Positions 4,300 through 32,000 are shown, counted from the first letter of the stretch. The stretch is DNA of 32,000 bases from Fibrobacter succinogenes subsp. succinogenes S85 (GCF_000146505.1 NC_017448.1:3090001-3122000); one strand, 5' to 3'. Notes: generated from the letters alone by a model not told the origin. Made by a program: numbers and translations.

Positions 4300-7200
4300 A
4301 TGAAAAACATCAAAATATTCGCATTTTTGGCAATTTTCCTCCTTTCTGCGTTCGTTTCGAGCGCGTGGGCAGTGGATGTCACCTTGACTTACAAAATTTC
4401 AGTGACAGGCACTATTCCACATGCCTATATTACCAACGCGGACGGTGAAACCGCTTGCGATTGGGCGAATGGCATAGGCGTCCTTTGGCCTGCGAACGAA
4501 GGGCACACCATGAACGATGGTTATGGCATCACTTTCACGCCCAATCAAGAATTGGACAAGACCAACAAAAACGAAAAAGGAAACAAAGTCTCGACTGCTT
4601 TCAGCACCGAAGAAAAAGAAACGGATTTCCAGGTGAAGGTGGGCAAAGAGGGCTTTTACTTAAAAAGCGTGACGTTCAAGGAAAATAATACTGTGAAAGC
4701 GTCTTCCCCCTCCAACATCGCCCCAAACTCAACCTCCATCGGAGTGAGGGTTCCGGCAAACAAGTTCTTCAACTACATCACCGTGGTGCTGACGGTCGAT
4801 GCCTATACCGTGAGTGTACCTGAAAATCTTACCATCAGCGACGCTTTTGCGACTATCAGCGGTGTCAATTACTACAAGTCCGGCGAAAAGTACACCCTGA
4901 CGCTCTCCACGACAAACGCAAACGAAATTATAGACGGAATTACCGGTGTCAAAGCAACGCTTGAAGCCGACAAAAAATCCGCCACTTTCAAGATGCCGAG
5001 CGAAGATGTTACCATCATGGCTACGACTGCCGAGGTGTATACTGTGAGTGTACCTGAAAATCTTACCATCAGCGACGCTTTTGCGACTATCAGCGGTGTC
5101 AATTACTACAAGTCTGGCGAAAAGTACACCCTGACGCTCTCCACGACAAACGCAAACGAAATTATAGACGGAATTACCGGTGTCGAAGCAACGCTTGAAG
5201 CCGACAAAAAATCCGCCACTTTCAAGATGCCGAGCGAAGATGTTACAATCACGGCGACTATCGCTTCTATTGTTAAAGAATGGGACAACGGTGACGGTAC
5301 CAAAGAAAGCCCCTATAAAATTACCTCCGTTGAGGACTTGAACACCCTTGCAGAACGTGTGAACGCTGGCAATGATTTCAAGGGCAAATATTTCAAGCTT
5401 ACCACCGATATCGAATACTCTCACAAAACCAAGTGGGAAAATGCATCCTCCAGTACCGAGCATAATTTCACCCCAATCGGCATCTACGATGATTATTCAG
5501 GTTACACATATACGTTCAATGGCATATTTGATGGTGATGGCAAAACCATCCGCGGAATCCGCATCAATTCTGATGAGTATTTTTCTCGTGTAGGTCTTTT
5601 TGGCTTTCTTGGCGGGGATGCAGAAGTCAAGAATCTAAGAGTAGCTGATGCAGTCATTTCTGCTTACGAAGAGGTCGGCACTATTGCGGGACATAATGAA
5701 GGCAAAATTCGTGACTGTATTGTAGACTCCGTTTTATTCAAAAATGTTCAGCGTATGTGTGGCGGCATAGCGGGTTATAATCAAGGAACACTCAGCGGTA
5801 ACTTAGTAATCCGCGTTACCATTTCCACCGGAAGTGGTTACGGTGCCGTTGCGGGCATTAACAGCAGTGGTCGCCTAAGTAATAATTTCTACACCGCCTG
5901 TACTTTTGCCGGAGTTGAGAATGCAACCAACGTCGGCACTGCTGATGAAAAAGCGTTCTATCAGCATCAACAAGTCTCCTACGACGTTACAGATGACAAC
6001 GGTGCCGTAAGTATTCACGCAGTCACCCTCGGCGAAGGCATATCTATCACAAGTCCTAAAAGCCCGATTTACACGGACAATGACAAAAACGCCTACTACA
6101 TGGCTGGCGAAATCTGCACCATCACCGTTGCAAACGAAGACGGCATCATTGAAAAAATTACCGGCGTAACGGCTTCCAACGAGAACGTAACAATGAACCT
6201 CGCTGCCGACAAAAAATCCGCAACATTCACGATGCCGAGCGAAAACGTTACAATCACCGCCGAATTCCCCTCGACTGTCGTTGGTTATACGGTGAGCGTG
6301 CCTGGAGATTTAACCATCAGCGACGCTTTTGCGACCATTGAAGGTGTCGATTACTACAAGGTTGGCGAGACATACACCCTGACAGCCAAGGAAAATGAAA
6401 TCATAAATACGATTACCGGCGTAACGGCTTCCAACGAGACCGTAACGATAAAACTCGCTGCCGACTTTAAAACCGCCACTTTCGAGATGCCGGGCGAAGA
6501 TGTTACCATCACGGCTACGACTGCCGAGGTGTATACCGTGAGTGTTCCTGAAAATCTTACCATCAGCGACGCTTTTGCGATCATTGAAGGTGTCAATTAC
6601 TACAAGGTTGGCGAGACATACACCCTGACAGCCAAGGAAAATGAAATCATAAATACGATTACCGGCGTAACGGCTTCCAACGAGACCGTAACGATAAACC
6701 TCGCTGCCGACAAAAAATCCGCAACATTCACGATGCCGAGCGAAAACGTTACCATCACGGCTACGACTGCCGAGGTGTATACCGTGAGTGTTCCTGAAAA
6801 TCTTACCATCAGCGACGCTTTTGCGATCATTGAAGGTGTCAATTACTACAAGGTTGGCGAGACATACACCCTGACGCTCTCCAATGCAAAAGTAAATGGA
6901 TTTATCGATGGAATTACCGGTGTAACAGCCACCATTGCTGCCGACCGAAAATCTGCCACCTTTACGATGCCGAGCGAAAATGTCGAAATGTCAGCCTCGA
7001 TTTCCAAAATATGGGGCGGGGATGACGGCAGGGATGGTTCCAAGGAACACCCCTACACTATCGCCTCTGTATCGGAGCTGAATGAGCTTGCATTGGTTGT
7101 CAATTCTGGCAATGATTTCAAGGACATGTACTTCGAAGTTGTCGAGGACATTGTTTACGATGTTACCCAAACAGACAACGGAAACAACTACACCGCAATC

Positions 7201-20998: not shown

Positions 20999-22816
20999 AT
21001 GTCCGTATCCGAGATTTTATTTGTTGTCGCCGGAGCTTTGCTCGGTCTTGCTATTCAGGGGGGCATGTTCCTTTTCCTTATCCCCTTTGCTGTTGTCGCA
21101 TTTTCACTTGCCGTCTTGAATCGTCCAAGCCTCCCGACGGGTACGACTGTTATTCCTGTGATTAAGAGTAGCAAGCGCACGACCGCTATTACACCGGTTG
21201 TGTCTCCGGATATCCGCAACGAGTTTACGAACGACGTCAAGATGGATACGAACGAGCCGAATTCCTCGCTTCGCGTGAACCAGATCTGGTCCCGTGCAAA
21301 CTCGGATGTCGACAAGGCGTTTGGCGATATGCTGCGCTGTCTCAAGCTGCTCATGCCCGATGCAAATACGTTTATGATTTTTATGAGTGGCGGTAGCGCT
21401 AACGAGCTTCGCCTGAGAACGTTCCAGAGTGATATTCCGAACTGCATCGATACAGGCGCAAAGATTTCTGAAAACATGGGCGTTATGAGCCAGCTCTTGC
21501 GTCCGGGCGTGTCTCGCATTTTGGAAGGCGACGTGCTTGTGAGCAAGCGTCTCCCGTACTACATTGAAAACCGCAAGATCCGTTCCTTGGTGGGTGTTCC
21601 GCTCCTGGACCGTGATGATCGCCGCTTTGGTGCTATCTTGGTGGATTCCTTGCATCCGAACGCCTTTAAGGAAGTTGATGTTCAGGCCCTTACGTTCATG
21701 GCTCATGTGATGTACATGGTGAGCTTCAAGAGCTACGTTTCTGCACAGAACTACATTGAACAGCAACAGTTCAGCGTGCTTTACCGCTACCAGCGCAAGT
21801 TCTTCCAGACCATGACGGTGAAGGATATCTACAAGCAAATGTTTGAATATGTCAAGGAGAACATGCCGTTCGACCGCTTGACGATTTTGGCGTTGGACAA
21901 ACCGAAGGAATGCGCTGGCCGAGTCGTTTACTGCGTGGGTGTGGATTCCGAACAGTTTGTCGATAAACGCTTTACGTTGTCCGATAAGGGCATCTTTGTG
22001 CTTGCTCTCATGAGGAACCGTCCGGTGTTCCGTTCGTTTACTTCGGGCTATGCCGATTACGTGCCGCGCCTGAACGATTCTGAAAAGCGCAATATGGAAT
22101 TGCGTCAGTTGTTTGTAATGCCGGTGGCTTCTGAACCGGATGCAAAGACGGCTGAACTTGCCATCTGCCTTGAAAGCCGTTACACGAACCGCTACCAGGA
22201 TCACGAAAAGAAACTCCTCAAGGCTTTTGCCGGTGTCGCAGGTTTTGCTTATGCCCGTGCGCTCCAGGTTGAAAAGGACAAGGACCTTGCGACGCGCGAC
22301 GGTCTCACGGGACTCATGAACCACCGCTCTCTGCAAGAAGCGCTCCGCACTGAAAAGGTGCGTGCCGACCGCAAGAAGTATAACATCGGCGTCTTGATGA
22401 TGGACATTGACCACTTCAAGCGCGTGAACGATACGTATGGACACCCGGTTGGTGACGAAGTGATTAAGGGTATTGCAACGGCGATTAGCGGTGAAATCCG
22501 CAAGGAAATTGACGTCGTGGCTCGCTATGGCGGTGAAGAATTTGTGGTGGCTCTCGTCGATACGACTCCGGAAGGCATGATTGAAACGGCTGAACGCATC
22601 CGCAAGGCGGTGGGCAAGCTTGAATTCAACGTGCATTTGACGGACCCGCTGCGTGTGACGGTCAGCATTGGCGCCTTCCTTGTGGAACCGGAGTTCTCGG
22701 ACATGAAGAAGGCGGTGAACAATGCGGACCAGGCTCTCTACAAGGCAAAGGATGGCGGCCGCAACCAGGTCGTGCGTTTTGAAACCGTTGAAACTGAAGC
22801 GGTGGGAGCTGTTTAG
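20999..22816 (+). CDS. Membrane-anchored GAF-GAF-GGDEF diguanylate cyclase
   Basis: The preferred start is ATG 20999 (MSVSEILFVV...), 8 nt after the lptG stop. There are two N-terminal TM helices and two GAF-like regions. The GGDEF domain has DGLTGLMNHRSL, MMDIDHFKRVNDTYGH and the active-site motif RYGGEEF. The I-site position reads KEID rather than RxxD. Confidence 0.88.
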   Translation: MSVSEILFVVAGALLGLAIQGGMFLFLIPFAVVAFSLAVLNRPSLPTGTTVIPVIKSSKRTTAITPVVSPDIRNEFTNDVKMDTNEPNSSLRVNQIWSRANSDVDKAFGDMLRCLKLLMPDANTFMIFMSGGSANELRLRTFQSDIPNCIDTGAKISENMGVMSQLLRPGVSRILEGDVLVSKRLPYYIENRKIRSLVGVPLLDRDDRRFGAILVDSLHPNAFKEVDVQALTFMAHVMYMVSFKSYVSAQNYIEQQQFSVLYRYQRKFFQTMTVKDIYKQMFEYVKENMPFDRLTILALDKPKECAGRVVYCVGVDSEQFVDKRFTLSDKGIFVLALMRNRPVFRSFTSGYADYVPRLNDSEKRNMELRQLFVMPVASEPDAKTAELAICLESRYTNRYQDHEKKLLKAFAGVAGFAYARALQVEKDKDLATRDGLTGLMNHRSLQEALRTEKVRADRKKYNIGVLMMDIDHFKRVNDTYGHPVGDEVIKGIATAISGEIRKEIDVVARYGGEEFVVALVDTTPEGMIETAERIRKAVGKLEFNVHLTDPLRVTVSIGAFLVEPEFSDMKKAVNNADQALYKAKDGGRNQVVRFETVETEAVGAV

Positions 22817-22818
22817 AG

Positions 22819-22882
<64 letters not shown>

Positions 22883-22972
22883 ACTTCCTTCTCTCTAAAA
22901 AGAAAACACTAAGTTCTAAGAGCGAAGCGGGCTAAGTTCTGCCAACTAGATTTTTTAAACAGCGTCTCCCTA

Positions 22973-26156: not shown

Positions 26157-26942
26157 ATGATCTCAAAATTGCTCAATATCATCTATCTCGTACTGCTAAT
26201 CGTCTGCGTGTGCGTTCTCATCCGCGTCGTGAAGGCGGAACCGGCTGCTGTTCCTGTGGCTGCATCTAACGGAGCGGTTGCATTCGAAGTCCCGCGCATC
26301 GAAGTTTCGGCTTCTGAAACCAAGAAATTTGCCGCCGACAAGTTCGAAATGGGTTTTAGCCTCGAAATCCGCGGCAAGGACAAGGAATCGGTTTCCAAGC
26401 GCTTGGCAGAACGTCGTTCCGTGATCTTCGAGAATGTGAAATCGCTTGAAATTCCGCAGTCCAACGTGGAACAGAACAGCGTTGAAATTCACAAGGAATG
26501 GTCTTATCGCAATAGCAAGCGTGAACTCGTCGGTTACGTGGCCACGCAGAGCTTTGTGATTACGGTGAACCGTAAGATTGATGCCGCCGCTCTCGTGCAG
26601 GCGCTTTCTTCGGAACCGGATGTCGAAATCCAGCGCACGTCCGCCCAGCTCAAGGATGTCGATGCGGTGCAGTCTACGGTCATCAAGGCGGCGGGTAAAA
26701 AGGCAACGGCCAAGGCTAATGACTATGCCGAAGGCGTTGGTGCAAAGCTCGGTCGCGTTCTTCAAATCAATGGCGAAGGCGGCGGAATCATCTACAACCA
26801 GTACAATCGTGTCTACCGTGCCAAGGGCGTCATGCTTGCGGCTAATGCCATGATGGACGGTGCCGCCGCTCCCGACGAAACCGCAATTGCCGACTCCGTC
26901 GAGGTAAGCGCTTCTGTCCGCGTCGTTTATGAACTAAAGTAG
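26157..26942 (+). CDS. SIMPL/DUF541 domain protein (single module), N-terminal membrane anchor
   Basis: It is a paralogue of the preceding gene (TKKFAADKFEMGFSLEIRGKDKESV...; AAGKKATAKANDYAEGVGAKLGRVLQI). Confidence 0.7.
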   Translation: MISKLLNIIYLVLLIVCVCVLIRVVKAEPAAVPVAASNGAVAFEVPRIEVSASETKKFAADKFEMGFSLEIRGKDKESVSKRLAERRSVIFENVKSLEIPQSNVEQNSVEIHKEWSYRNSKRELVGYVATQSFVITVNRKIDAAALVQALSSEPDVEIQRTSAQLKDVDAVQSTVIKAAGKKATAKANDYAEGVGAKLGRVLQINGEGGGIIYNQYNRVYRAKGVMLAANAMMDGAAAPDETAIADSVEVSASVRVVYELK

Positions 26943-27461
26943 TTCTAACAGACTTTCTTCATATTCCTTGGCCGCCTTTTCGAGGGCGGCTTTTGTCATA
27001 TCCGGGCTGCATCCGTAGAATCCAAGCGGCTTAAACCATTTCATGCCGGCGGCGTTCGCGGTCATTTCGAACGGGATGAGCATTTCTTCGGCGGTGTAGC
27101 GGTTGAGACCTTCGTGGGTGTAGTGTTCTGCGGCTGCGCCTGCTGTAAATACAACGCGTACGGGCATTCCCTTCAAGAAGTTGTCCGCGCTGTAGACAAT
27201 CGGGCTCATAATTTGGTCTTGCCAGTCGCGCAAGCTCGAGGGGGAGTTGTACCAATATATAGGGAACTGCCAAACGATCGCCTTGGACTCCCTCAACAAT
27301 TTTTTTTCGGCCTCCAGGTCGAAGTAGCCATTAACTCGGTTTTTGTCAAGGTGGTGAAACACAAAATTGGGATTTTTTCTGTTGATATCCACTAAGTGTT
27401 TGTTGAACATGGAGTTAGAAATGTTCGGATGCGATAGAAGAATTGTGATTTGATTGTTCAT
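26934..27461 (-). CDS. Flavodoxin-like fold NAD(P)H oxidoreductase (Flavodoxin_2 / general stress protein 14-like)
   Basis: 175-aa ORF with ITILLSHPN...S..NK and IVWQFPIYWYNSPSSLRDWQD, characteristic of the NQO/KefF/YwrO-type family. It is convergent with the preceding gene and overlaps its 3' end by 9 nt. Confidence 0.75.
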   Translation of the reverse strand: MNNQITILLSHPNISNSMFNKHLVDINRKNPNFVFHHLDKNRVNGYFDLEAEKKLLRESKAIVWQFPIYWYNSPSSLRDWQDQIMSPIVYSADNFLKGMPVRVVFTAGAAAEHYTHEGLNRYTAEEMLIPFEMTANAAGMKWFKPLGFYGCSPDMTKAALEKAAKEYEESLLELL

Positions 27462-27574
27462 TATTTTTTCTTGTTGATAAGTTGAGGAAATATTATAAAA
27501 AAATTACATCTTACGTGCAAAAAGTCTTCCAAATTGGACTAAGATTTATTATACTTGTAGTGATGTCGACCTAC

Positions 27575-27616
27575 ATCTTGTGGGTGTGGTTCGATCTTGA
27601 ACACAAGATATAGTAA
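27575..27616 (+). promoter_or_regulatory. Candidate operator upstream of nrdD: 8-bp inverted repeat plus an NrdR-box-like palindrome
   Basis: atcttgtg (27575-27582) and cacaagat (27602-27609) form an inverted repeat. acacaagatatagtaa (27601-27616) matches about 13/16 positions of the published NrdR box consensus acaCwAtATaTwGtgt as I recall it. No convincing second box lies at the canonical spacing. Confidence 0.3.
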
Positions 27617-27670
27617 AATCGGAGAAATTTGACTATATTTGAGGAAACGGGAATTGAAGGTTTTTTTTAG

Positions 27671-30002
27671 ATGATTTTTACTGTCAAAAAGCGCGACGGC
27701 CGCGAGATGCCGTTCAACATCGAAAAGATTGCTGATGCCGTAATCAAGGCTTTTAGAGCCTCTGGCGAACTGGATGAACAGATCAAGGCTTCCCAAGCCC
27801 AGATGAATTTGCTTGGAAGTGATGACCTTTTGACGAACGTCGCTCTCAAGGTTGCTGCCGAAGCTGTAGGCCACTTGGAAGCCGAAAATAAGACCAAGCC
27901 GGACATCGAAGAAATTCAGGATGCTGTTGAAAAGGCTTTGACCGAAGGTGGTTACGCCGATACCGCCAAGAGCTATATCTTGTATCGTGCCGAACGTACT
28001 CGCGTACGTGAAGTCAACACCCGCCTCATGCAGACGCTTCATGACATTACGTTCAGCTCTGCCAAGGAATCCGACCTCAAGCGCGAAAATGCCAATATCG
28101 ATGGCGATACGGCCATGGGTACCATGCTCAAGTACGGTTCCGAATCCGCTAAGCACTTCTATACGATGATGATGCTCAAGCCGGAACACAGCCGCGCTCA
28201 CATGGATGGTGACATTCACATCCATGACCTCGATTTCTATTCTCTTACGATGACCTGCTGCCAGATTGACCTCATTAAGTTGTTCAAGAATGGCTTCAAC
28301 ACAGGTCACGGTCACTTGCGTGAACCGAAGGATATCCGCAGCTACGCCGCTTTGGCCGCTATCGCCATTCAGAGTAACCAGAACGACCAGCACGGTGGAC
28401 AGTCCGTGCCGAACTTCGATTACGCCATGGCAAACGGTGTGCGCATCACGTACCGCAAGGCTTACCTTTCGAACATGGTCAAGGCTCTCATGCTTTTGAC
28501 GGGCAAGACCGAAGAAGAAATTCAGCCGGTGGTGAAAAAGCTCCACAGCGAAATGGCTGAAATGGGCATGGTGGCAACGCTCGTGCCGAATGAAAAGTTC
28601 CAGACAACTGAAGCCCACGAACTTTCCAAAACTTATGACGCCGAAACGGTAAAGAACGCCCAGAAGTTTGCCGAAAAGATGGCTTACGAAGAAACTGACA
28701 AGGCAACGTTCCAGGCCATGGAAGCTTTTGTCCACAACTTGAACTCCATGCACAGCCGCGCTGGTGCCCAGACTCCGTTCTCTAGCATCAACTATGGTAT
28801 GTGCACGGAACCGGAAGCCCGCATGGTCATGAAGAACTTGCTCCTCACGACCGAAGAAGGCCTCGGCGGTGGTGAAACGGCTATCTTCCCGATCCAGATT
28901 TTCCGCGTCAAGGACGGCATCAACCTCAATCCGGGCGAACCGAACTACGACTTGTTCAAGCTCGCCTGCCGCGTGAGTGCCAAGCGCCTGTTCCCGAACT
29001 TTAGCTTCCAGGACGCTCCGTACAACCTGCAGTACTACAAGCCGGGTCATCCGGAAACCGAAATTTCGTACATGGGCTGCCGTACCCGCGTGATTGGCAA
29101 CCATTACGACCCGAGCCGCGAAATCTCTTACGGCCGTGGCAACTTGAGCTTTACCTCGATTAACCTCCCGCGTATTGCCATCAAGATGAAGTCCGTGGAC
29201 TTGTTCTTCAAGGAACTCGACCGCATGCTTCAGCTCGTGAGCGACCAGCTCATGGAACGCTTTGCCGTGCAGAGCCGCCGCAAGGTCAAGAACTTCCCGT
29301 TCCTCATGGGACAGGGTGTGTGGATTGATTCCGACAAGCTCGGCTGGGAAGATACCGGTGGGTGAAGTCATCAAGCATGGAACACTTTCGATTGGCTTTA
29401 TCGGCCTTGCCGAAACCTTGGTGATGCTTACGGGCAAGCATCACGGCGAATCCGAAGCTTCTCAGGAACTCGGCCTCAAGATTATCGGTCACATGCGCGA
29501 ATTCTGCGACAAGGAATCCGAACGCCTTGGCCTCAACTTCAGCTTGCTTGCAACGCCGGCTGAAGGCCTCTCTGGCCGCTTTGTGCGCATGGACAAGAAG
29601 AAATTTGGCATTATCCCGGGCGTTACCGACCGCGATTACTACACCAACTCTTTCCACGTGCCGGTTTACTACAAGATTTCGGCTTTCAAGAAGCTCTCGC
29701 TGGAAGCCCCGTACCATGCGCTTACTAACGCTGGCCACATCAGCTACATCGAACTTGATGGCGACCCGACGCAGAACTTGGACGCTTTCGAAAAGATTGT
29801 GAAGCACATGGCAAAGGTGGGTATTGGTTACGGAAGCATCAACCATCCGGTGGACCGCGACCCGGTTTGCGGATTCGTGGGCGTGATTGGCGATGTTTGC
29901 CCGCGCTGCGGACGTAGCGAAGGCCATGCCATCTCTTGCGAAAAGCTCGAAGAACTTAGAAAGAAATTCCCTGGAATGCCCGCATTTAGAGGGATTAGGT
30001 AA
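27671..30002 (+). CDS. nrdD: Anaerobic (class III) ribonucleoside-triphosphate reductase NrdD body. The reading frame is interrupted by a +1 frameshift at 29360-29365, and the protein lacks the glycyl-radical C-terminus.
   Basis: ORF 27671-29365 has an N-terminal ATP-cone (MIFTVKKRDGREMPFNIEKIADAV...) and the barrel N-half. NrdD homology continues in the +1 frame from about 29362 (...EVIKHGTLSIGFIGLAETL...YYTNSFHVPV...NAGHISYIELD...INHPVDRDPVCGFVGVIGDVCPRCG), ending at TAA 30000-30002. Confidence 0.9.
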
Positions 30003-30063
30003 GTAGAACTTAGAACTTAGAGCTTAGAACTTAGACTAAGTTCTGCCAACTAAGTTCTGCCAA
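30003..30063. repeat. Composite repeat element: (TTAGAAC-like) x5 plus (CTAAGTTCTGCCAA) x2, in the gap between the nrdD body and the radical-loop minigene
   Basis: The units read gtagaac ttagaac ttagagc ttagaac ttaga, then ctaagttctgccaa twice (30036-30049 and 30050-30063). There is an 8-bp hairpin, agaactta-gac-taagttct (30026-30044), then a tgcggc-gaa-gccgca hairpin (30065-30079). The same two sequence words occur at 22819-22945. Confidence 0.9.
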
Positions 30064-30082
30064 CTGCGGCGAAGCCGCAAAC

Positions 30083-30088
30083 AAGGAG
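30083..30088 (+). promoter_or_regulatory. Shine-Dalgarno (AAGGAG) for the glycyl-radical minigene
   Basis: AAGGAG lies 8 nt upstream of ATG 30097. Confidence 0.6.
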
Positions 30089-30096
30089 TGCAAAAA

Positions 30097-30243
30097 ATGT
30101 CAGAAAAAGAACTCTCTCAGTATGGTGAAGGTGTTGGATTCGAACGTATCCGCCGCATTACGGGTTACCTCGTCGGTACAGTTGACCGTTTCAACAATGC
30201 CAAGCGCGCTGAAGTCAACGATCGCGTAAAGCACGGCGTATAA
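30097..30243 (+). CDS. 48-aa stand-alone NrdD glycyl-radical loop peptide (C-terminal NrdD domain encoded separately)
   Basis: This ORF is not in the supplied track because it is under 60 aa. It translates as MSEKELSQYGEGVGFERIRRITGYLVGTVDRFNNAKRAEVNDRVKHGV. That matches the extreme C-terminus of NrdD proteins (E. coli, from memory: RRVCGYLGSPDARPFNAGKQEEVKRRVKH), including the radical Gly in the GYL motif. Its TAA (30241-30243) is 1 nt from the nrdG ATG. Confidence 0.75.
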   Translation: MSEKELSQYGEGVGFERIRRITGYLVGTVDRFNNAKRAEVNDRVKHGV

Positions 30244-30244
30244 G

Positions 30245-30805
30245 ATGGATGAATATCCTCCACTGCGGATTGCAGGGATTGAGCCCGAATCATTCGTGGA
30301 CGGTCCCGGAATCCGCTTGACTGTGTTTACTCAGGGCTGTCACCACAACTGCCCGGGTTGCCAGAATCCGCAGACTCATGATTTTGAGGGCGGACACTTT
30401 ATCGAGCGCGAAGCGATCATCACAATGATCAAGGAAAATCCGCTGCTCGATGGCGTGACGTTTAGCGGAGGCGATCCGATGGACCAGGCGGCGGCACTTA
30501 TTCCGCTTGCCCGCGAAATCAAGGAACGCGGTCTCAATCTCGTGATTTTTACGGGATACACGTACGAACAGCTGATGAAGCTTACGCCCGAAAAGCCGGA
30601 GCTTTTTGAACTGCTCACGTTTGCGGACATCCTCATCGACGGTCCGTTTGTCATGGCGAAGAAGTCCCTGGACATTAAGTTCAGAGGTTCCTGGAACCAG
30701 CGCATTATCGATGTGCAAAAGAGCCTTGTCGAAGGCCATGTGGTCATCCACCAGATTCAACTGGACGAGATGGCGGAACACCCCGACAGGGAATACAATA
30801 CGTAA
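30245..30805 (+). CDS. nrdG: Anaerobic ribonucleotide reductase activating protein (radical SAM)
   Basis: 186-aa ORF with VDGPGIRLTVFTQGCHHNCPGCQNPQTH (the CxxxCxxC radical-SAM cluster in the NrdG context) and GVTFSGGDP. Confidence 0.9.
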   Translation: MDEYPPLRIAGIEPESFVDGPGIRLTVFTQGCHHNCPGCQNPQTHDFEGGHFIEREAIITMIKENPLLDGVTFSGGDPMDQAAALIPLAREIKERGLNLVIFTGYTYEQLMKLTPEKPELFELLTFADILIDGPFVMAKKSLDIKFRGSWNQRIIDVQKSLVEGHVVIHQIQLDEMAEHPDREYNT

Positions 30806-30839
30806 GTGCGGTAAATGCCCGCGCGAATCGTGAATGCCC

Positions 30840-30866
30840 AAAGGACGAGATTGAACTCGTCCTTTT
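30840..30866. terminator. Bidirectional terminator hairpin between convergent genes
   Basis: Stem aaaggacgag, loop attgaa, stem ctcgtccttt, flanked by A/T residues. It lies between the nrdG stop (30805) and the stop of the minus-strand 74-aa gene (30870). Confidence 0.7.
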
Positions 30867-30869
30867 GTG

Positions 30870-31094
30870 TTATGGGATAATTTGGTCTTTGGTCAGATTG
30901 AATCTGAGGATTAGTGTTTCCAAAGGGACCCCATCTTTGAAAAGGGCCCTAGCTGTTTCTAGCTTTTCGGCTTCGGCCTTGTTGAGCTCGTCACGTACCT
31001 TTTGTGTTTCTGCATGGGCATCGGCAAGTCTTTTACGGAATACATCGCCGGCACTCACAAAACCATATTTCTGTCCAATGCTAACGAATGCCAT
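30870..31094 (-). CDS. Hypothetical small protein (74 aa), helical, unknown function
   Basis: A strong RBS (AAGGAG, 6 nt spacer) precedes the ATG at 31094. The product MAFVSIGQKYGFVSAGDVFRKRLADAHAETQKVRDELNKAEAEKLETARALFKDGVPLETLILRFNLTKDQIIP has a coiled-coil-like middle and an HTH-like tail. No family is recognised. Confidence 0.5.
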   Translation of the reverse strand: MAFVSIGQKYGFVSAGDVFRKRLADAHAETQKVRDELNKAEAEKLETARALFKDGVPLETLILRFNLTKDQIIP

Positions 31095-31313
31095 TTCTAA
31101 CTCCTTGAGTTGTTCTTCTGTGAGGTACTTTAAAGCTACATTCGTTATGGAAAATAATCAAGTAGGCCTATTGTTGGGCTTGGGGAGGGCTGATGATTAG
31201 GAAAAAACGATGGAATTTGTGTCTTTGATACAATGTCGAAGGATTTTTCCGGAACAGACCTTTATATCGAGGATGAGGAATAATCTATATTACAAGTAAT
31301 AAAGGAGCCCGTT

Positions 31314-32000
31314 ATGACATATACATTTTTGAAGCTTGCTGAAGAAGTTCTTGAAGAAGCCAAAAAGCGCGAGAACATCCAAGCACTTTCCCATGTGGAA
31401 ATATGGGAAAAGGCTGAAAAATATGGAATTCAAAACAAGTGTAGTTCCTCTGGTAAAACGCCTTGGCAATCCATCTGCGCTCAAATATATGTGGATATGA
31501 AGGATAACGCTAAAACTATTTTTGCAAAAATTGGTACGCGGCCTGTGCGTTTTGCTCTTAAGAAATATGTTGAAAATGGTGTAAAGATTACTGACATAGA
31601 ACAAAAAATAAAACAGCCTAAGACAATATTTTCGGAACGGGATTTACATCCGCTTTTGACGAAGTTTGTTTATTCGAATTCGCATTTTCATTGTTATGCA
31701 AAGACTATTTATCATGAGACTTCAGCCAAACATAAGATTGGGCGAAATCATTGGTTACATCCGGATTTGATGGCCGTCTATTTCCCGTTTGATTCGTATC
31801 AAACAGGAACACTGGATATAATTAAGTCTTTTTATGAGTCAAAAATGAAATTGTTCTCATTTGAGATGAAAAAAGAAATCACTAGCTCGACTCTTCGTGA
31901 GTATTATTTCCAAGCAGTTTCTAATTCTAGTTGGGCTAACGAAGGCTATTTGGTCGCTTTGAAATTTGATCAAGATGATGATTTTCGTGAAGAAATGCAA
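31314..32000 (+). CDS. HARE-HTH domain protein with C-terminal PD-(D/E)xK-like domain (COG2958-like), partial (continues past window end)
   Basis: This ORF is not in the supplied track because it has no stop within the window. AAAGGAG lies 6 nt upstream of ATG 31314. The N-terminus is MTYTFLKLAEEVLEEAKK..LSHVEIWEKAEKYGI....SGKTPWQSICAQIYVDMKDN..IFAKIG.RPVRFALK, which matches the HARE-HTH pattern. The C-terminal part has ERDLHPLL, W.HPDLMAV, FSFEMKK (PD...ExK) and FQAVSNSSWANEGYLVA. Confidence 0.7.
   Translation, partial: MTYTFLKLAEEVLEEAKKRENIQALSHVEIWEKAEKYGIQNKCSSSGKTPWQSICAQIYVDMKDNAKTIFAKIGTRPVRFALKKYVENGVKITDIEQKIKQPKTIFSERDLHPLLTKFVYSNSHFHCYAKTIYHETSAKHKIGRNHWLHPDLMAVYFPFDSYQTGTLDIIKSFYESKMKLFSFEMKKEITSSTLREYYFQAVSNSSWANEGYLVALKFDQDDDFREEMQ

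Follow-up and report, generated by a model that had tools for sequence, protein, structure and literature searches.

Oxygen destroys glycyl radical enzymes by cleaving their backbone at the radical glycine, a damage for which the only remedy known is YfiD/GrcA, the spare part of pyruvate formate-lyase (PFL). The activase takes a hydrogen from this glycine, and the loop that bears it has to lie inside the barrel, next to the cysteine of the finger loop, as is the case in NrdD and in the PFL/YfiD system. How, then, could an anaerobic (class III) ribonucleotide reductase (RNR) work if its catalytic polypeptide stopped before this loop? The question is raised by the nrdD locus of Fibrobacter succinogenes subsp. 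succinogenes S85, contained in a stretch of 32,000 nucleotides (nt) (NC_017448.1:3090001-3122000, assembly GCF_000146505.1) that is called the window throughout, in which a truncated nrdD body is followed by a 48-codon minigene encoding the radical motif and by nrdG, the gene of the activase. We propose, with a probability of roughly 0.8, that these three pieces would specify a functional class III RNR made from two polypeptides and an activase, a reading that draws on the comparison of sequences.

Layout of the nrdD locus and place of the radical loop

The nrdD body ends in ...CPRCGRSEGHAISCEKLEELRKKFPGMPAFRGIR, and its TAA stop comes directly past the Zn-ribbon (Table 1). The original prediction had described this truncation, as well as a minigene in another frame, beyond a 94-nt spacer and with AAGGAG 8 nt from its ATG, and all these particulars were found as described. 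The product of the minigene, 48 amino acids (aa) long, is MSEKELSQYGEGVGFERIRRITGYLVGTVDRFNNAKRAEVNDRVKHGV, and its place in the enzyme becomes evident with NF005497, the NrdD equivalog model (746 positions, curated cut-off 764 bits). The intact S85 body (L170) reaches 1120 bits and covers positions 1-711, ending there in the 746-position model, the peptide covers positions 711-744, and the fused relative P0351 covers 1-744. Thus, body and peptide tile the model without overlap or loss, so that the peptide is the missing glycyl-radical end of NrdD, as had been claimed; the RxxGY motif is absent from the barrel polypeptide and is located on the 48-aa product.

When compared with the NrdD of P. 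copri (8P23), the body aligns up to CPKCG, at residue 703-704, and the peptide to residues 707-738. The fused protein has about 3 residues between the Zn knuckle and the loop; S85 has, in their place, a 29-aa tail, a stop, the spacer and a 13-aa N-terminal extension of the peptide. The finger-loop motif YMGCRTRV is present in the body, with M468, G469, C470 and R471 invariant in 57 aligned homologues, and its MGCR matches the finger-loop description in PMC9669993. As regards profiles, the peptide matches only NRDD (PF13597) and the NrdD models of NCBIfam, and not the PFL-type Gly_radical family (PF01228/IPR011140). The coordinates of all these elements, together with those of their neighbours, are collected in Table 1.

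Table 1. Features of the nrdD locus of strain S85, in positions counted from the first letter of the window
Feature	Position	Strand	Basis or remark
nrdD body, 5' part: ATP-cone and first 2/3 of the barrel	27671..29356	+	Pfam ATP-cone, NRDD; NF005497 1-523
1-nt insertion, GG against a single G in all relatives	29357..29358	+	alignment to 11 loci
nrdD body, 3' part: remaining barrel, Zn-ribbon, TAA	29358..30002	+	NF005497 524-711; 8P23 residues 518-704
Zn-ribbon CPRCG	29898-29912	+	within the 3' part of the nrdD body
29-aa body tail RSEGHAISCEKLEELRKKFPGMPAFRGIR, Lys at the radical-Gly position	29913..29999	+	best read as a glycine-less loop paralogue; in all split bodies
Intercistronic spacer, 94 nt	30003..30096	+	repeats, hairpins, Shine-Dalgarno sequence AAGGAG
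Shine-Dalgarno sequence AAGGAG	30083-30088	+	8 nt 5' of the minigene ATG at 30097
48-codon radical-peptide minigene	30097..30243	+	PF13597 533-562; NF005497 711-744; frame differs from that of the body
Radical Gly codon, peptide residue 23, motif RRITGYL	30163-30165	+	within the minigene
nrdG, radical-SAM activase	30245..30805	+	TIGR02491, 141.7 bits (cut-off 126.1)
Terminator-like hairpin and T-rich tail, 3' of nrdG	30840..30875	+	consensus scan only

Upstream of nrdD, at 27575-27615, there is also an inverted pair, CTACATCTTGTG ... CACAAGATATAG, which we take to resemble an NrdR-box-like operator.

Conservation of the split and the arguments for a broken or a fused gene

A scan in which each species was represented by a single genome gave 80 related loci, belonging to metagenome-assembled genomes (MAGs) and isolates of Fibrobacter, to Fibrobacteraceae and to Oscillospiraceae (Lawsonibacter, Pygmaiobacter, Allofournierella). 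The order body, minigene, nrdG is found in 77 of the 80, and in every one of these 77 split loci a GGAG stands 5-10 nt before the minigene ATG and nrdG lies 3' of the minigene. The orthologues therefore share the same split, always with a Shine-Dalgarno sequence (SD) and an ATG proper to the minigene, and the body, of ~776 aa, is intact in nearly all relatives. The distances are variable: the spacer between body and minigene ranges from 12 to 200 nt, the relative frame of the minigene is 0, 1 or 2 (29, 26 and 22 loci, respectively), and 1-8 in-frame stops separate the two parts in each locus. As to nrdG, the close coupling pointed out in the original prediction is true for S85, where a gap of 1 nt separates the minigene stop from the nrdG ATG (30245), but it is not kept among the split loci, in which the gap is 0-209 nt.

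Ratios of non-synonymous to synonymous substitution rates (dN/dS), calculated by the Nei-Gojobori method for 57 Fibrobacter minigenes and 75 body tails, are 0.056 for the minigene (0.018 in the loop and 0.12 in the N-extension) and 0.12 for the tail. Such values show that purifying selection acts on both parts, and the split is kept across one genus and into another phylum. The reading as two polypeptides, already advanced in the original prediction, has therefore gained from the conservation of the split, the selection on both parts, the own SD and ATG of the minigene and the lack of a radical glycine on the body; with a Lys in its stead, no radical-glycine copy is left there, so that the peptide would be obligatory and not a back-up.

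As an explanation of the split, an assembly or sequencing artefact at 30000-30097 is practically negligible. Although the record does have one probable single-base error, at 29357, two assemblies at the S85 level show the same split, and so do dozens of MAGs, isolates and metagenomes of independent origin, which also settles the doubt about misassembly that had accompanied the first description of the locus.

A second possibility is that the cell still makes a single fused polypeptide, whether by read-through of the stop codon, by ribosomes that bypass the spacer, by splicing of the RNA or by trans-splicing of the protein, and a structured hairpin is indeed found right 3' of the S85 stop, as at some recoding sites. 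This long hairpin is formed, at ~30003-30062, by (GAACTTA)n tandem repeats and inverted CTAAGTTCT(GCCAA) copies, and the spacer, whose fold has an energy of -36.1 kcal/mol (z = -3.3), contains in addition a GCGGCGAAGCCGC hairpin at 30066-30078. However, a second copy of the (GAACTTA)n element is found at 22816-22950, 3' of another gene, and both copies stand directly after stop codons; the spacer hairpin is, thus, a dispersed intergenic element. Nor is such a hairpin general in the family, since roughly half of the Fibrobacter loci have no hairpin and a minimal spacer of 20-36 nt, and the remaining ones carry long-hairpin inserts of 60-200 nt that are unrelated in sequence between lineages. 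In the loci L003-L043, these inserts consist of short tandem repeats with their inverted counterparts, in many cases flanking a hairpin of the GCGGCGAAGCCGC type, with folding energies of -20 to -67 kcal/mol.

Taking into account that all three relative frames occur, that in-frame stops intervene and that SD and ATG are kept throughout, read-through, bypassing and any fixed-frame fusion are excluded. As for splicing, an Rfam scan of positions 27000-31000 gave no match, introns included, neither the tail nor the peptide has an intein domain, the segments of 29 and 13 aa are too short for a split intein, and the N-terminus of the peptide varies freely across the family, which speaks against trans-splicing. 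One fused product is, for all these reasons, extremely improbable. The split mechanism does not involve the hairpin, which might tune the relative expression of the two parts; a promoter/terminator consensus scan was uninformative for the spacer.

A third possibility arises from the body itself. The original prediction had treated it as one open reading frame (ORF), which does not hold for the window, where an extra G at 29357/29358 (GATACCGGTGGGTGAAG, against GATACCGTGGGYGAAG in eleven relatives) splits it into 27671-29365 and 29358-30002, the 5' ORF ending at a premature TGA (29363-29365) and the NF005497 score being divided into 754.6 and 343.1 bits. Together with the split, this frameshift could indicate a pseudogene, that is, an nrdD decaying by frameshift and loss of its loop in a cell that lives on another RNR. 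Nevertheless, when positions 26244-32000 of the window are compared with CP001792.1, also from F. succinogenes S85, the 5757 nt show 0 mismatches and one gap, which is that G; CP001792.1 carries the body as an intact gene of 776 codons, and its annotation calls the 48-codon minigene as well. Once the G is removed, the codons unique to the window body amount to 20 synonymous and 2 non-synonymous changes with respect to its ten closest relatives, and each of these ten shows the same synonymous-rich pattern. Since it is absent from CP001792.1 and no excess of non-synonymous changes is seen, the frameshift is no sign of decay; it is either a discrepancy of sequencing or a clonal change that occurred very recently, without progressive decay. 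Thus, a pseudogene, the ordinary outcome against which the original prediction had warned, is very improbable, taking also into account the intact bodies of nearly all relatives and dN/dS values of 0.02-0.12.

The body tail, the mosaic 3' end and the peptide genes of phages

Given a split that is conserved and selected, the next point is how it could have arisen, and in this respect the tail of the body is informative. The nearest homologues of the body comprise 88 split and 32 fused proteins (768-803 aa). The split ones end in GR(S/H/R)(E/D)G(H/E)xIxxE(K/R)LxELRKx(F/Y)P...F.G.., followed by the stop, and the fused ones, a set that includes a 'Fibrobacteres bacterium' protein, read CPxCGxKESEGxxFERIRRITGYLVG... 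In alignments, MAFFT repeatedly placed the fused radical loops on the split tails, and for this reason the homology of the tail was tested directly with hhalign, comparing a profile of 62 tails with one of 31 fused loops after removal of the shared GRxEG prefix. The local score obtained was 27.3 (probability 92.6), and none of 200 column shuffles of the tail profile reached it (mean 7.6, standard deviation 1.7, maximum 12.8). Tail and loop share the hydrophobic pattern E-R-[LI]-x-x-[LI]-x-x-x-[FYL]-x-G-x-[ML]-x-x-F, and the tail has Lys where the loop has the radical Gly. For the tail, the best reading is a degenerate paralogue of the radical loop that lacks its glycine; under this reading the split would have come about via a second copy of the loop, duplicated or acquired, and not through a simple cut.

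The 3' end seems to have a history different from that of the barrel. In a neighbour-joining tree of the barrel, from which the tail was excluded, the split bodies of Fibrobacter adjoin fused Fibrobacterota-like proteins, and the split Clostridial and viral bodies fall in at least 2 other places. Sliding windows give the same relationship along residues ~120-600, where S85 is 83-91% identical to the fused group and 56-78% to the split Clostridia, but in the last window the order is reversed and S85 is nearer to the split Clostridia. Likewise, between the Zn-ribbon of S85, DRDPVCGFVGVIGDVCPRCGR, and that of the split Clostridia there is 1 difference in 21 positions, against 6 of 21 with respect to the fused relatives. 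The simplest reading of these data is that a 3' cassette, containing Zn-ribbon, tail and minigene, was moved between nrdD lineages by recombination. A separate case is the split body of a Lawsonibacter (L066), which is 83-88% identical to that of S85 at residues ~540-690 and 53-65% upstream, a pattern that suggests further mosaic recombination between phyla.

The peptide also exists far beyond these loci. A search of 5.8 billion proteins gave 6744 matches, the best 120 clusters all being of 41-68 aa, and among 1.84 billion representatives at 50% identity there were 2091 matches at E <= 0.001, a count that reflects diversity and not abundance, because clustering inflates short variable proteins. 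Of the best 150 representatives, 141 are of no more than 100 aa, start with Met and have no upstream Zn knuckle. The stand-alone homologues conserve the core GEGVGFERIRRITGYLVGTxDRFNNAKRAExxDRVKH, their N-termini and C-terminal tails being variable. In public annotation, body and peptide bear the same name, 'anaerobic ribonucleoside-triphosphate reductase'. It has to be mentioned that one fused NrdD relative (P0376, 779 aa, from a single NCBI contig) reads RRITSYLVG, with Ser for the radical Gly, which may be due to an error of sequencing or represent a non-glycyl variant.

One widespread lineage of Fibrobacteraceae (L063-L065 and L174-L176, from MAGs and metagenome scaffolds) has a truncated, tail-bearing body followed directly by nrdG, with a TAATG overlap, and no peptide-coding sequence was found in it within 10 kb on each side (tblastn, E <= 10); the peptide gene is, consequently, elsewhere or absent. 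A further arrangement was observed in a Fibrobacter-type contig (L085:1-1072), in which a phage-like variant of the peptide (MERKKRRLVGEGVKFERIRR...) stands immediately 5' of a Fibrobacter nrdG, and the ORF 5' of this peptide lacks Pfam matches and is different from nrdD.

Relatives of the peptide are encoded by at least 552 stretches of IMG/VR, and the best 80 loci (L087-L166) were classified. Seven of them contain a split body; in the other 73 the peptide ORF is an orphan, with no NrdD-barrel or NrdG-like ORF within 6 kb on each side in hidden Markov model searches. The surroundings of the orphans are phage-like, with endolysin, RNA ligase, thymidylate synthase, RtcB and phage domains of unknown function (DUFs), and the viral peptides take two forms, one of 44-70 aa and another of 100-150 aa with an N-terminal domain (...LDGDxVELxY....VxFxRIRRITGY). 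For the peptide, no dedicated family exists in PHROGs, in which the only matches were to the C-termini of full-length NrdD families. The idea that the orphans replace a gene end beside an integration site is not supported, since five viral loci, a small sample, had endolysin, RtcB and DUFs and no integrase. Among cultured phages, Eggerthella phage EL753P1 (L173, OP172808.1) carries a body, a 102-aa ORF and the peptide, all annotated as hypothetical. In this record, at 6920-7128, five inserted nucleotides (TGACC) shift the frame of the peptide precisely at the radical site, between RRI and TGY.

Some of the viral split loci contain mobile elements. A free-standing homing endonuclease gene of the NUMOD4 plus HNH_3 type lies between body and peptide in L107 (5180-5665) and also in L109, the barrel of L107 has in addition a LAGLIDADG intein at the catalytic cysteine, and in L108 and L111 other small ORFs are inserted at the same junction. 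At the junction of the window, and at those of the 77 cellular split loci, whose spacers do not exceed 200 nt, no endonuclease was found. The homing endonuclease is a candidate driver for the movement of the 3' cassette.

These elements bring in another explanation, in which the fission was neutral. A selfish element, either a homing endonuclease or phage DNA, would have inserted between the Zn-ribbon and the loop; the resulting fragments would reassemble, no useful exchange of the peptide would take place, and the split would persist because it is hard to reverse. The HNH endonuclease at the junction in L107 and L109, the other ORFs in L108 and L111 and the mosaic similarity of the 3' end agree with it, and precedents exist in nrdA of phage Aeh1, split by mobE, and in the split NrdJ. 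A neutral fission leaves, however, three observations unexplained, which are suggestive and not decisive: the frequent lone peptide genes of phages, the unlinking of the peptide gene from the body in one lineage, and the selection on the glycine-less tail. We consider this origin a real possibility, although with less than even chances.

Proposed mechanism and comparison with known systems

According to the two-polypeptide proposal, the 776-aa body would supply the ATP-cone, the catalytic barrel with its MGCR finger loop and the Zn-ribbon, without any radical glycine, and the 48-aa peptide, for whose translation the minigene has an SD and an ATG of its own, would supply the RRITGYL loop. NrdG would set the radical on Gly23 of the peptide, either free or docked, and the peptide would bind non-covalently to the barrel, the radical reaching the finger-loop cysteine as in fused NrdD. 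As to the origin of this arrangement, the radical loop may have been duplicated, or a second copy acquired; the copy attached to the body would then have lost its glycine and been shortened by a stop, persisting as the conserved 29-aa tail, and the downstream copy would have turned into an independent gene. Later, the split 3' end may have spread between nrdD lineages by recombination, probably aided by phages and by the homing endonuclease of the junction. After cleavage by oxygen, 48 residues alone would have to be replaced, and the oxygen-labile, consumable part of the enzyme would have become a small exchangeable module, encoded also on its own by many phages.

A stronger claim, which is advanced tentatively and which we hold to be somewhat doubtful, is that this exchangeability is actually used, by phages among others. 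The peptide would then behave as an exchangeable cofactor, which NrdG activates and which enters and leaves a barrel of long life, and the glycine-less tail as a placeholder displaced by the activated peptide. The orphan peptides of phages could sustain or raise the synthesis of deoxyribonucleoside triphosphates (dNTPs) in the host during infection, and homing endonucleases would distribute the split 3' cassette among nrdD lineages.

Several points weigh against the two-polypeptide enzyme and against its extensions. The support for the peptide and for an active complex is at the level of sequence. Two AlphaFold2 runs were made: in the first, with body and peptide as one chain and a multiple sequence alignment (MSA) in which fused loops lay on the tail, the C-terminus had a predicted local distance difference test (pLDDT) score <50, and in the second, with a shallow MSA, the mean pLDDT was 64.7 and residues 716-824 were <50; since residues 767-824 have pLDDT <50 in both runs, docking is without structural support. 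The homology between tail and loop rests on a 24-column profile alignment, the barrel tree is crude and without support values, and recombination is deduced from this tree and from sliding-window identities. A second RNR in F. succinogenes could make nrdD dispensable in some strains, in which case the frameshift of the window would possibly be real; literature searches for such a second RNR in this species found nothing useful. Finally, the benefit of exchangeability is speculation, and a neutral fission by a selfish element accounts for the same data.

With these reservations, the proposed enzyme would be a natural, conserved and widespread system in which the radical site of an essential anaerobic RNR lies on a separate 5-kDa peptide, and its hosts are F. 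succinogenes S85, cultivable and sequenced, and abundant gut Clostridia, with hundreds of phage contigs carrying the lone peptide gene. It makes accessible to experiment the action of the activase on a free peptide, the delivery of the loop into the barrel, and the control of dNTP supply by phages through a gene of 50 residues. An exchange of the peptide, if real, would make it the first spare-part system of a glycyl radical enzyme that is not PFL, and an obligatory one.

As regards the literature, searches of full texts turned up neither a split NrdD of this kind nor any work on the RNR of Fibrobacter, subscription-only literature being outside the search, and within this scope the publications agree with the novelty put forward in the original prediction. 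Dwivedi et al. 2013 listed split phage nrdD genes, with intron, intein or unexplained fragmentations. Spare parts have been validated for PFL alone, and it has been posed as an open question whether glycyl radical enzymes of other kinds own them (Andorfer et al. 2021, PMC8683613; June 2026 review, PMC13450708). In a large RNR phylogeny, sequences <400 aa were discarded (PMC9531940); with such a cut-off, surveys miss the peptide and count the bodies as ordinary NrdD. The peptide looks like the first spare-part-type radical module outside PFL.

The S85 system has the elements of the fused NrdD/NrdG pairs of E. coli, phage T4 and P. copri (8P23), namely the ATP-cone, the barrel, the MGCR finger loop, the Zn-ribbon, the RRxTGY radical loop and a neighbouring radical-SAM activase, but its loop (model positions 712-746) is on a separate 48-aa peptide and the body ends in what is read as a glycine-less copy of it. 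The nearest functional analogues would be GrcA/YfiD of E. coli and Y06I of phage T4, the spare parts of PFL, which are also small stand-alone glycyl radical proteins with phage versions. As they do, the peptide would presumably be a substrate of its cognate activase and insert into a large barrel. Unlike them, it is homologous to NrdD (PF13597) and not to the PFL-type Gly_radical family, has 48 against about 127 aa, and does not act as a back-up: being the only copy of the radical site, the Fibrobacter peptide is obligatory.

A catalytic subunit encoded by two adjacent genes is known from NrdJa/NrdJb of P. aeruginosa and from NrdA-a/NrdA-b of Aeromonas phage Aeh1, in which nrdA is split by the homing endonuclease mobE and the products reassemble (PMC3653736). 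The parallel with nrdA/mobE extends to the free-standing homing endonuclease at the junction, seen here in the phage relatives L107 and L109. Those systems, however, belong to other RNR classes and are split at another point, whereas here the small fragment is the radical loop only, the body appears to retain a degenerate duplicate of the loop and the small gene circulates alone in phages. Lastly, the phage nrdD genes with group I introns or inteins (T4, Clostridium phage c-st, Lactococcus phage 949) are similar in that nrdD is a frequent target of mobile elements, but in them one continuous protein is restored, whereas in the split nrdD of Fibrobacter there is no splicing element and the products stay separate.

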